Source: a virus (lineage: Duplodnaviria > Heunggongvirae > Uroviricota > Caudoviricetes). Taken from it: a stretch of 3,595 nucleotides of DNA. Location: positions 1 to 3,595 of IMG/VR virus record IMGVR_UViG_2623620501_000012; one strand, written 5' to 3'. Below, piece by piece: positions 1 through 3,595 of this stretch (its first letter is position 1; each line of letters opens with the position of its first letter). A model generated the notes under the pieces. That model was not told the DNA's origin and made no database searches. It saw only the letters and a list, made by a program, of their open reading frames with translations. The position numbers were made by a program, and so were the translations under genes.

Positions 1-390
1 ATGCCATTTGCTCGTTATTTCTGCATTTTCATAAATGTTGGTTTGGGAGAAGCGGCTAAAAGGAATGTAGGGACAGGGGCGAATCAGATACCTGATATGG
101 GTAGCTTCACGCTTTCTGTTTCAGGTACTGGATATCAAAAATTACCATCAGGTTTTATTCTTCAGTGGGGCTCAATCGGCGCACCAGGCATTGCACAGGA
201 TGTAGTAACCCATTTCCCGATTGCATTTCCAAACAGATGTCTGCGTGTTTTGGTCTCACAAGACTACACACCAGATAGCGGGAATGTTGGTTATATTGCC
301 TGTGCAGGTTTTAGTCCCGACCCGGTTAAATTTATATCCAGAGCCAGTACTCCTGGCCTCGGCGCTTCATTTTTAGCGTTAGGCTGTTAA
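1..390 (+). CDS. Alternative tail-fibre C-terminal (receptor-binding) cassette, silent in this orientation; functional part probably begins at the crossover site near nt 40, not at the ATG at nt 1
   Basis: ORF track 1..390 (129 aa). Codons at nt 37-54 (VGLGEA) are identical in sequence and frame to the LGLGEG codons of the minus-strand tail-fibre gene at the other crossover site. The C-terminal region ([16 protein letters not shown]) looks like a phage fibre tip domain from recollection only. No RBS or promoter is visible before nt 1. It is followed 21 nt later by a tail-fibre assembly gene. Confidence 0.6.
26..51. other. Serine-invertase crossover site (hix/gix/pix-like), left boundary of invertible segment
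   Basis: Seen in sequence: nt 38-52 ttggtttgggagaag is the exact reverse complement of nt 1935-1949. The inner half-site and central TT dinucleotide are perfectly conserved; the outer half (ttttcataaatg) is degenerate, as is typical of hixL/hixR and gixL/gixR pairs. Confidence 0.7.
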
Positions 391-411
391 TTTAGCTATA
401 TGGAGTGAAAA

Positions 412-852
412 ATGAATTACATATATTCCGCGACTACAAACTCTTTCTATCCGCTGGAGATGAAAGAGGATTACACTCAAGCTGACTCATGGCCAGATGA
501 TGCTGTTGAAGTTGATGAGCAAGTGTATATTGAGTTTTCCGGATTACCGCCGAAAGGAAAAATCCGTATCGCTGGAGAAAATGGTTTTCCTGCATGGTCT
601 GAAATTCCACCACCAACACATGAGGAACAGATTGCTGCAGCCGAACTGGAAAAGCAGCAACTGATTAATCAGGCCAACGATTATATGAACAGTAAACAAT
701 GGCCTGGTAAAGCGGCTATTGGCCGGCTGAAAGGTGAGGAACTGGCGCAATATAATTTGTGGCTGGATTATCTGGACGCACTGGAACTGGTCGATACTTC
801 CGGTGCGCCAGATATTGAATGGCCTACGCCTCCGGCAGTTCAGGCCAGATGA
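412..852 (+). CDS. Tail-fibre assembly protein (Tfa/U-type chaperone), 146 aa, partner of the silent fibre cassette
   Basis: ORF track 412..852. GGAG sits 7 nt upstream of the ATG (ggagtgaaaaATG). The C-terminal motif APDIEWPTPP matches the conserved C-terminal signature of phage tail-fibre assembly proteins. Position immediately downstream of a fibre C-terminus. Confidence 0.8.
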   Translation: MNYIYSATTNSFYPLEMKEDYTQADSWPDDAVEVDEQVYIEFSGLPPKGKIRIAGENGFPAWSEIPPPTHEEQIAAAELEKQQLINQANDYMNSKQWPGKAAIGRLKGEELAQYNLWLDYLDALELVDTSGAPDIEWPTPPAVQAR

Positions 853-1417: not shown

Positions 1418-2241
1418 TATTTAGCCCTCACCAGAAAGTTAAATGCAATATTTCGTGGACGGGTTTCTGTACCTACATGTCCACTAATTTCACCATAACG
1501 TTTAACACTACGAGAGCTAAGAGCTCGTAGTGAGGAAGGCACCTTAAGACCGGGTTCGTCCGTTTTAACTATTCCCCCGTCACCATATGTAGCCAGTATT
1601 CCTGGGTTTACTCCTTCCCGTGCACTTCCTGCAGCAAGCCCGTCCCCCGTCCACAATTCCATATTGTGTGCATGATCCATAATTGTGTGTGATTGCCCTG
1701 AAAGTAGGGTACGTCCGACATCAATCCCGCGCCCATCATCCCAGATACGAATGAAATCACCCCGTGCGTCAGGTAATGCTAGCGCCGGAAACGCTTTCGC
1801 CAGCACAGGGTAATCAGTGGCAGAGAATTTCGCGCCGTTGAACTTCAAAAACACCATACTGGACCAACTGTCGATTACAGTATTTGGCATTGCGGCGGAC
1901 GGCCAGAAGAACGGAACGCCAATAGCTGGAGCACCTTCTCCCAAACCAAGGTTTTCGAGAGCCTTTTGCACCGTGCCGTCCAATTTGATATCGCCAAACG
2001 GATTCTTGCGGCTTAACAGCAACGCGCGAAGCGCGGTAAGTAGCTGATCCGTTTTTTTGGGGTCAGGTTGAATATGTGCACCACCAAGAACATTAAGGAG
2101 TTCCTGCTGTAAATCACGGGTTGCCCCCTGCTGATTGTTTAAATAACCAGCAGTCACGAGGGTTCCTTCTATCCCCTGAGTGGGGTCACCATCATGAAAC
2201 AATTGATCCGGTGTATTTATCGGGGGCATCAGATTTTGCAT
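1417..2241 (-). CDS. Tail-fibre protein, 274 aa: constant N-terminal part (aa 1 to about 97) fused at the crossover site to a variable collar-type C-terminal domain
   Basis: ORF track 1417..2241 minus. Strong SD AAGGAGG (reverse complement of about 2249-2256) precedes the ATG at 2241-2239. TAATG overlap with the upstream gene. The C-terminal half contains a phage-tail-collar-like pattern (FNGAKFS...YPVLAKAF...LPDARGDF...[14 protein letters not shown]). The crossover site encodes [10 protein letters not shown] at aa 94-103. Confidence 0.8.
1936..1961. other. Serine-invertase crossover site (hix/gix/pix-like), right boundary, embedded in the tail-fibre coding sequence
   Basis: Seen in sequence: TTCTCCCAAACCAAGGTTTTCGAGAG, a 26-bp site with a palindromic AAACC-AA-GGTTT core. 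From memory it resembles hixL (TTCTTGAAAACCAAGGTTTTTGATAA) and gix sites. The inner half is the inverted repeat of 38-52. Confidence 0.75.
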
Positions 2242-2813
2242 TACTGCTCCTCCTTATATGTGAAATGGCAATAAGTAAAAGCGGGTTTAAGGTCTTTAAA
2301 TGTTTCTTCCAGTACAGGGGCACCAAAGGAAAGTAACGGCTCCCCGGCAGCAGATACTCCGGTTCTGAATCTGTAGGCTGGCGTTCTGCTTCCTGTGACA
2401 TTAACCTGCCAAATCCATCGGGCATCTGTTATATAGAGACGATCACCACATCGGTTTATCCCCGCTCTGAATGGATGAAGTTCAGTAATTGTTATGGTGT
2501 ACCCGAGGCTGGCTGCAAGTTGTTTAAAATAAGGGATAGATAACCCACCAGTTGCAGCCATCTTTATAAGAATATTTTCTCGGCGTTCCTGCTGTGTGGC
2601 ACCGTCGCGGGGTATTACTCCATACACTCGTTCCCAGTCAGACAGCGTCATGGATGCGTAAAATGGTGTGACAGATGCAAGCACTCGTGCAGCTGACGCT
2701 TTTACTTCATCCATAATGGCTGCTTCTGCGTTCAGTTCTGCTGAAATATATTTCCCGTTCGGGTCATAGCTGACCGGTGGTAACATGGCACGAAATAAAT
2801 CAACCGTATTCAT
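2241..2813 (-). CDS. Phage tail/baseplate protein, 190 aa (probably the Mu gp48 / P2 gpI / e14 YmfQ-like family), immediately upstream of the tail fibre
   Basis: ORF track 2241..2813 minus. SD-like GGGAGAG lies upstream (reverse complement of 2821-2827). Stop overlaps the fibre start (TAATG). Family assignment rests on synteny and recollection of e14/Mu gene order, not on a verified alignment. Confidence 0.6.
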
Positions 2814-2816
2814 GTA

Positions 2817-2902
2817 TTAACTCTCCCGGGGAAATGGCTGGATATCAATACTCCCCGGACGCAGCCACTCCCATGTGGATTCATTGACAACTGCTTTTAC
2901 AT
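2817..2902 (-). pseudogene. 3' remnant (about 28 codons) of the upstream tail/baseplate gene, truncated by the IS66-family insertion
   Basis: The minus-strand frame is open from the IS boundary down to a TAA stop (reverse complement of 2817-2819), translating ...VKAVVNESTWEWLRPGSIDIQPFPRES*. There is no in-frame start codon between the IS end and the stop, and the stop lies 3 nt before the next gene's ATG, a typical operon junction. Confidence 0.45.
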
Positions 2903-2925
2903 GTAAGCGTAAACTGACCGCCGTA
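2903..2925. repeat. Probable left terminal inverted repeat of the IS66-family element (exact length uncertain)
   Basis: GTAAGCGTAAACTGACCGCCGTA beginning at 2903. The right IR is outside the window, so its extent cannot be confirmed. Confidence 0.45.
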
Positions 2926-2987
2926 TGTAGCCATCAGACGAGAATTGGTAACTTAGACGCCCATCTGATATAGACGGACATCTAAGT

Positions 2988-3413
2988 ATGGAATTACAGG
3001 ACTGGCGAAAAGAACCTCGTAAAAACTATTCGAATGAATTCAAACTTCGTATGGTGGAACTGGCATCACAACCTGGAGCTTGTGTTGCACAGATTGCACG
3101 TGAAAATGGCGTCAATGATAATGTTATTTTCAAATGGCTCAGGCTCTGGCAGAACGAAGGGCGTGTTTCGCGGCGTCTTCCGGTAACGACCTCTTCTGAC
3201 ACTGGCGTTGAATTATTACCTGTAGAAATAACGCCGGATGAGCAGAAAGAACCTGTGGCGGCCATTGCGCCGTCTTTATCCACTTCCACTCAGACCAGAG
3301 TCAGTGCCAGTTCCTGCAAGGTGGAATTCCGTCACGGTAACATGACGCTGGAAAATCCATCGCCAGAGCTGCTCACAGTGTTGATCCGTGAACTGACCGG
3401 GAGGGGAAGATGA
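2988..3413 (+). CDS. tnpA: IS66-family TnpA (Orf1, helix-turn-helix accessory protein), 141 aa
   Basis: ORF track 2988..3413. The N-terminal region (YSNEFKLRMVELASQPGACVAQIARENGVNDNVIFKWLRLW) has the HTH-like pattern of IS66 Orf1. Its stop TGA overlaps the start of the next ORF (ATGA at 3410-3413). Confidence 0.85.
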   Translation: MELQDWRKEPRKNYSNEFKLRMVELASQPGACVAQIARENGVNDNVIFKWLRLWQNEGRVSRRLPVTTSSDTGVELLPVEITPDEQKEPVAAIAPSLSTSTQTRVSASSCKVEFRHGNMTLENPSPELLTVLIRELTGRGR

Positions 3414-3595
3414 TCTCACTCCCATCAGGTACCCGTATCTGGCTCGTTGCCGGCGTTACCGATATGCGTAAATCCTTCAACGGACTGGGAGAACAGGTAC
3501 AACATGTGCTGAATGATAATCCCTTCTCCGGTCACCTGTTTATCTTCCGTGGCCGACGGGGTGACACCGTCAAAATTCTTTGGGCTGATGCTGAT
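3410..3595 (+). CDS. tnpB: IS66-family TnpB (Orf2), N-terminal 62 codons; 3' end beyond the window
   Basis: Manual translation from the ATG at 3410: MISLPSGTRIWLVAGVTDMRKSFNGLGEQVQHVLNDNPFSGHLFIFRGRRGDTVKILWADAD, open to the window end. Absent from the ORF track because no stop falls within the window. Confidence 0.8.
   Translation, partial: MISLPSGTRIWLVAGVTDMRKSFNGLGEQVQHVLNDNPFSGHLFIFRGRRGDTVKILWADAD

Follow-up and report, generated by a model that had tools for sequence, protein, structure and literature searches.

Insertion of IS elements is a textbook route of prophage decay. In phage Mu, the baseplate protein gp47 (gene W, P2 gpJ/T4 gp6 class) is wedge protein 2, which is present in two copies per wedge and contacts the neighbouring wedges in a handshake, while gp48 is wedge protein 3 and bears the fibre-docking loop (PMC11915804). 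Gene P has one of the four C-dependent, i.e., activator-dependent, promoters that serve the late genes of Mu (PMC2582627, PMC4461284). Elements of the IS66 family, on the other hand, duplicate 8 bp of their target site upon insertion (PMC6778807). Here, we describe a locus in which the two systems meet, located in a window (the whole stretch of DNA that was analyzed, 3595 nt) from the draft genome of Escherichia coli RiKo 2351/09 (assembly GCA_001637785.1), a faecal strain of a healthy cow that belongs to phylogroup B1 and ST88 (PMC4966475). In reverse complement, the window equals the last 3595 nt but two of contig LAUC01000044 (LAUC01000044.1), and the end of this contig lies inside an IS. 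We are highly confident that the locus reflects a single ISEc23 insertion in gp47 of a Mu-like prophage residing in uidB, with the consequences of a defective prophage. In this reading, one copy of ISEc23 transposed into codon 332–334 of gp47 (baseplate J, wedge protein 2) and duplicated 8 bp of its target (TTTTACAT), as IS66-family elements typically do; the IS genes are opposite in direction to the phage late genes.

The gene order of this phage is the one found in Mu (gp44-gp45-gp46-gp47-gp48-fibre-chaperone-invertible segment). Positions 2817–2902 of the window (minus strand) were recognized by translation and DNA identity as the orphaned 3′ end of a baseplate wedge gene, a homologue of Mu gp47/baseplate J, and contain 2 nt of codon 332, codons 333–359 and the stop codon TAA (2817–2819). 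The minus-strand frame translates from 2902 down to this stop as VKAVVNESTWEWLRPGSIDIQPFPRES, and as LHVKAVVNESTWEWLRPGSIDIQPFPRES when 2817–2906 is considered, in both cases followed by the stop. The initial annotation, which had been made from the window alone, described this frame as having about 28 codons, in agreement with the 27 complete codons and 2 nt that lie left of 2903, and placed its TAA just before the RBS and the ATG of the next gene. The ATG (complement of 2811–2813) does lie 3 nt past the TAA, whereas the RBS (GGGAGAG) is found ahead of it, inside the 3′ end of the truncated gp47 gene. Window positions 2241–2910 had matches in 22 complete E. coli genomes over positions 1–662 of the query, i.e., exactly up to 2902, with 98–100% identity over 2241–2902 and the annotation ‘baseplate J/gp47 family protein’, and the 86 nt at 2817–2902 showed 100% identity to unbroken copies of the gene from other E. 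coli. One intact copy, in strain CFS3292, has 359 codons (positions 4577–5656 of the fetched segment, minus strand) and continues past the insertion point with TTTTACAT followed directly by TATCTGACGG. The encoded protein matched Pfam Baseplate_J (PF04865, E = 5e−67, residues 69–313) as well as the structure of the ‘Baseplate protein gp47’ of phage Mu (PDB 9ki1, 9ki1_H; E = 9e−44), with which it is homologous over residues 10–335, and shares about 33% identity with gp47 of Mu/D108. The gene is located between gp46-like and gp48-like genes in a contractile-tail baseplate module, in the same order as in the intact relative. The suggestion that the short frame is a baseplate C-terminus is thus borne out by the DNA identity in the 22 genomes, the Pfam domain and the 9ki1 match. 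Unlike Mu gp47, the gene is split here by an IS and its protein ends in 8 IS-derived residues.

The right part of the window (2903–3595, plus strand) consists of the left 693 nt of ISEc23, an IS66-family element, as indicated by its identity to a complete copy, Pfam domains and RefSeq names. For comparison, five reference copies were taken from other genomes, four of them complete, in which the element measures 2532 bp, begins with GTAAGCGTAAACTGACC, ends with TTGACGCTTAC and is surrounded by an 8-bp direct repeat of its own (GTTACACA, TGTTTTCA, TTTTTATA and GGTTTAAT). RefSeq annotates the reference copies as ‘IS66-like element ISEc23 family transposase’. The window showed 0 mismatches to nt 1–693 of a complete copy. 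The IS66-type terminus that the initial annotation had noticed at GTAAGCG (2903) proved to be the exact first base of ISEc23, as in the four complete copies. The left inverted repeat (GTAAGCGTAAACTGACCGCCGTATG, about 27 nt from 2903) matches the right inverted repeat (IRR, GTAAGCGTCAACGGAGCACCGTATT, present on contig LAUC01000045) at 21 of 27 positions, both opening with GTAAGCGT; such imperfect terminal inverted repeats starting with GTAAGCG are as in the IS66 family. As previously described, the IS genes point away from the phage genes on the plus strand: tnpA (2988–3413, Pfam HTH_Tnp_1) is followed by tnpB (from 3410, 62 codons of it within the window, PF05717 TnpB_IS66, IS66 Orf2), the two overlapping by ATGA. 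In the reference copies, tnpC contains LZ, zf-IS66, DDE and C-terminal domains, and the 3′ part of the gene with the DDE_Tnp_IS66 domain was found on LAUC01000045, so that the order of the three IS66 genes, i.e., tnpA (HTH), tnpB (overlapping tnpA) and tnpC (DDE transposase), is present. The element therefore shares with known ISEc23 copies the gene order, the GTAAGCGT termini and the 8-bp duplication; with 100% identity over the 693 nt in the window and 99.7% over 1173 nt on the partner contig, nothing within the element distinguishes it from ISEc23, and just the insertion site is particular to RiKo 2351/09.

A megablast search of window positions 2600–3595 against 5426 complete E. coli genomes returned thousands of matches to elements annotated as ISEc23 family transposase, and the junction between IS and phage was absent from these 5426 genomes. 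Matches to other copies started 12–19 nt left of 2903, and a longer left end of the IS was considered for this reason; it was ruled out, as GTAAGCG forms the very start of every copy, each of which has an 8-bp repeat of its own, and the additional matched bases are T-rich flanks that resemble one another. The flanks left of several ISEc23 copies are similar to window positions 2880–2902 (GACA..CTG..TTTTA-like, with T-rich duplications). This likeness is no evidence of target preference, because the copies were ranked by coverage, which selects for similar flanks.

The other end of the insertion was located through its predicted protein product. A simple insertion predicts a chimera of J residues 1–334 and VSVNGAPY, the latter encoded by the right end of the IS, and this sequence was searched for as an exact match in the protein collection. 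The chimera built on the CFS3292 sequence and seven versions built on other members of the cluster had no exact match in this collection, while the version with the common residue S298N matched exactly a protein of 342 aa (OAC31504.1/WP_063610839.1), which is encoded at the start of LAUC01000045.1 in the same assembly as the window. Downstream of the chimeric gene and on the other strand, this contig has the 3′ portion of an IS66 DDE transposase gene; the Mu-like genes upstream of the chimeric gene are gpT, gp36, gp37, sheath, tape measure, DNA circularisation protein, gp44, gp45 and gp46. The right junction reads GACGCTTAC, TTTTACAT and TATCTGACGG in direct succession, or GGTGCTCCGTTGACGCTTAC, TTTTACAT and TATCTGACGGCATAAT in the orientation of the window. 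The second IS end, which had been expected to the right of the window, was hence found at the start of LAUC01000045, where it would close a 2532-bp element. It directly abuts TTTTACAT, which is among the two 8-mers predicted for the duplication; the left copy of this target-site duplication lies at 2895–2902 of the window. In the uninterrupted CFS3292 gene TTTTACAT occurs once (positions 4655–4662 of the fetched segment). When the IS and one repeat were removed in silico, an ORF of 359 codons was restored, whose sole difference from the CFS3292 protein is residue 298, and the gene accordingly continues in frame beyond the IS, as had been anticipated. Given that both the predicted duplication TTTTACAT and the in-frame gene were found on a second contig, the junction is not a chance match. 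An assembly artefact, with a repeat having produced a chimeric contig end, might be suspected, since the draft contig breaks off in a repeat and the window occupies its extreme end. However, the left and right junctions come from separate contigs and match each other at single-base level, with one and the same 8-bp sequence and a gene that stays in frame. In addition, three contigs of NCBI and Logan assemblies encode the chimeric protein, and we regard an artefact as extremely improbable.

Together, the two contigs cover 1868 of the 2532 nt of the IS: LAUC01000044 stops at IS nt 695 and LAUC01000045 at nt 1360, the right arm on the latter (1173 bases) having 3 mismatches to the reference, and the middle 664 nt (nt 696–1359) are unassembled. 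As the breaks are inside the IS and not at its ends, it seems that only this middle part, comprising the end of tnpB and the start of tnpC, is repeated elsewhere in the genome, perhaps in a related IS66-family element. Something repeated or unresolved in the middle could also mean that the two arms belong to a larger structure, such as a composite transposon (IS-cargo-IS), a nested insertion or two recombined copies. We consider this decidedly unlikely: the identical outer 8-bp repeats and the perfect in-frame gene point to one transposition, while recombined copies would give unlike flanks, and two collapsed full copies would normally break the contigs at the IS ends instead of inside. Moreover, both arms are near-identical to the 2532-bp reference (0 and 3 mismatches) and the two contigs are consecutively numbered. 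These observations argue for a single ISEc23 copy between the two parts of gp47.

The consequences for gp47 were examined next to 41 aligned homologues and a structural model. The gp47 frame runs 24 nt into the right end of the IS and encodes the 342-aa protein (residues 1–334 plus VSVNGAPY), from which the 25 conserved residues of the C-terminus are missing. This truncated version keeps all Pfam-recognised domains and loses residues 335–359, equal to 25 of 359 residues or 7% of the protein. The C-terminal tail is present in all 41 homologues (50–98% identity), in which W344 is invariant, E343 and G348 are near-invariant and the motif EW[LI]R.G.I.V is recognizable, and an AlphaFold2 model (mean pLDDT 87) places in it a long terminal beta-strand (residues 342–354, pLDDT about 85–90). 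Because the lost tail is conserved and contains a confidently predicted terminal strand, the truncation likely abolishes the function of gp47. The initial annotation went further in stating that a probable baseplate gene is destroyed, of which the baseplate identity holds, whereas its destruction can only be inferred from the loss of these 25 residues.

Downstream of gp47, three genes follow on the minus strand: an intact Mu gp48-like gene coding for baseplate wedge protein 3 (2241–2813, YmfQ family, 190 aa; Pfam Phage_Mu_Gp48, E = 2e−30), a tail fibre gene (1417–2241, 274 aa, Mu gp49/S-like, an ORF with a weak match to a Collar domain), whose start overlaps the gp48 stop, and the gene of a tail fibre assembly chaperone (824–1417, 197 aa, Mu gp50/U-like; Pfam Caudo_TAP, E = 1e−27). 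The stop and start codons in this block overlap or lie 3 nt apart, and such gaps of 0–3 nt are too short to accommodate separate promoters. In Mu, the gene P promoter lies upstream of the baseplate genes, and by analogy we assume the same layout of late promoters for this phage. Since the truncated gp47 frame stops 24 nt into the IS, most of the 2.5-kb antisense element is untranslated. From the packing of the genes and the analogy with the Mu P promoter, the insertion should be strongly polar on gp48, fibre and chaperone: the block from 2813 down to 824 is cut from the baseplate genes by 2.5 kb of antisense IS, and the read-through from the late promoter would be largely lost through transcriptional polarity.

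The initial annotation had also proposed that the IS could supply an outward promoter. A scan for sigma-70 consensus sites on the minus strand of the IS detected one sigma-70-like site (3542–3513), which is directed towards the fibre genes and located 610 nt from the IS end. With 1 site found vs 2.1 expected, the consensus scan revealed no outward promoter above chance in the IS, and the proposal was not upheld. This site and the retention of all Pfam domains in gp47 are what would favour a mild phenotype, in which the truncated gp47 works, the downstream genes are transcribed from a promoter in or at the IS, and particles are still made. Against it, the lone site is within chance expectation and distant from the IS end, the lost segment holds the invariant Trp and the confidently predicted terminal strand, and Mu late genes need activator-dependent promoters (PMC2582627), which makes a mild phenotype unlikely in our view. 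A further reading, to which we give a very low probability, is that the gp48-fibre-chaperone block has been kept and is expressed via IS-derived transcription to serve the host or another resident phage (e.g., as a donor of fibre modules); the one observation in its favour is that the reading frames are intact. Under the preferred reading of an ISEc23 insertion with loss of gp47 function and polarity, the prophage should fail to build functional baseplates and fibres, and thereby infectious particles, and a defective tail production is very likely, in line with the initial annotation, which had called the prophage likely defective.

By its sequence, the host element is probably a Mu-like transposable prophage in uidB (glucuronide transporter gene), of which the window represents the right end. 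This classification draws on the late genes and right end of the RiKo 2351/09 prophage and, for MuA and MuB, on the close relative in CFS3292. The latter, a complete Mu-like prophage of 35.6 kb, has genes for repressor, Ner, MuA, MuB, Mor, lysis, head and tail, and the early-region proteins of this relative are each found on hundreds to > 1000 contigs. An identical phage right end abuts uidB in RiKo 2351/09 and mhpT in CFS3292, and insertion in such unrelated chromosomal genes is expected of transposable phages. The check for a 5-bp Mu-type duplication at the CFS3292 prophage was ambiguous (TATTC vs ATTCC). Mu-like prophages of Enterobacteriaceae (CFS3292, E2348/69) share with the RiKo copy their right end, the 31-codon invertase stub and baseplate genes of 99–100% identity, whereas the RiKo copy differs from them by carrying the IS and by the content of its invertible fibre segment. 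On the window side, only the 3′ end of uidB is present (positions 3838–4044 of the fetched segment), followed by uidC, ydgA, manA, fumA, fumC and tus, with the ydgA beyond uidC split into two ORFs.

The left half of the window contains an invertible fibre segment of the Gin/Pin/Hin type, with inverted crossover sites of about 25–26 bp at 33–57 and 1930–1954 (TTCTCCCAAACCAAGGTTTTCGAGAG inside the fibre gene, inverted TTCTCCCAAACCAACATTTATGAAAA). Between these sites lie two chaperone genes that converge, along with a pair of alternative fibre C-termini. The fibre protein has a constant N-terminal part down to the crossover site near 1930–1954 and a variable part inside the invertible segment, while positions 1–852 (plus strand; Pfam Gp53-like_C and Caudo_TAP) represent an alternative, currently unexpressed fibre module, composed of an alternative fibre C-terminal part (1–390, Gp53-like_C) and its chaperone (412–852, Caudo_TAP). 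The two convergent chaperone genes (412–852 on the plus and 824–1417 on the minus strand) overlap by 29 nt at their 3′ ends (824–852). In comparison with the CFS3292 prophage, the identity of 99.3% over 1934–2902 drops abruptly at the crossover site, and inside the segment just patches of about 91% were found. The fibre protein is 63% identical overall to that of CFS3292, with nearly identical N-terminal ~ 100 residues, and in the whole collection the 274-aa fibre is recorded on one contig (LAUC01000044.1). The difference between the two fibres looks like a module exchange at the recombination site.

Left of the window lie a stub with the remaining 31 codons of a Pin/Gin-type invertase gene, a stretch of 118 nt ending in CGCGAAGTTACA, and then the 3′ part of uidB and uidC. 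The stub and the phage end occupy positions 3627–3837 of the segment fetched from LAUC01000044, just left of window position 1. A strain-specific deletion was considered as the origin of the truncated invertase and ruled out, as the stub and the following 118 nt form the phage right end in both strains, base-for-base the same in CFS3292. The truncated invertase is hence a feature of the phage lineage and not of the RiKo strain. With the invertase cut to 31 codons and the same stub in the otherwise complete CFS3292 prophage, the fibre segment is frozen in this lineage. Equivalents of gin, com and mom are absent in this phage lineage.

Neither the IS nor the gene family, phage type or mechanism is new, and the locus is a case of ordinary prophage decay by IS insertion that matters little beyond annotation. 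WP_063610839.1, recorded as a ‘baseplate J/gp47 family protein’ of 342 aa, is a chimera that arose by truncation through the IS and not a natural variant, and the draft contigs 44 and 45 very probably adjoin each other through a single ISEc23. For the Mu-like prophage of this bovine commensal E. coli, the production of infectious particles is very probably beyond its capacity.
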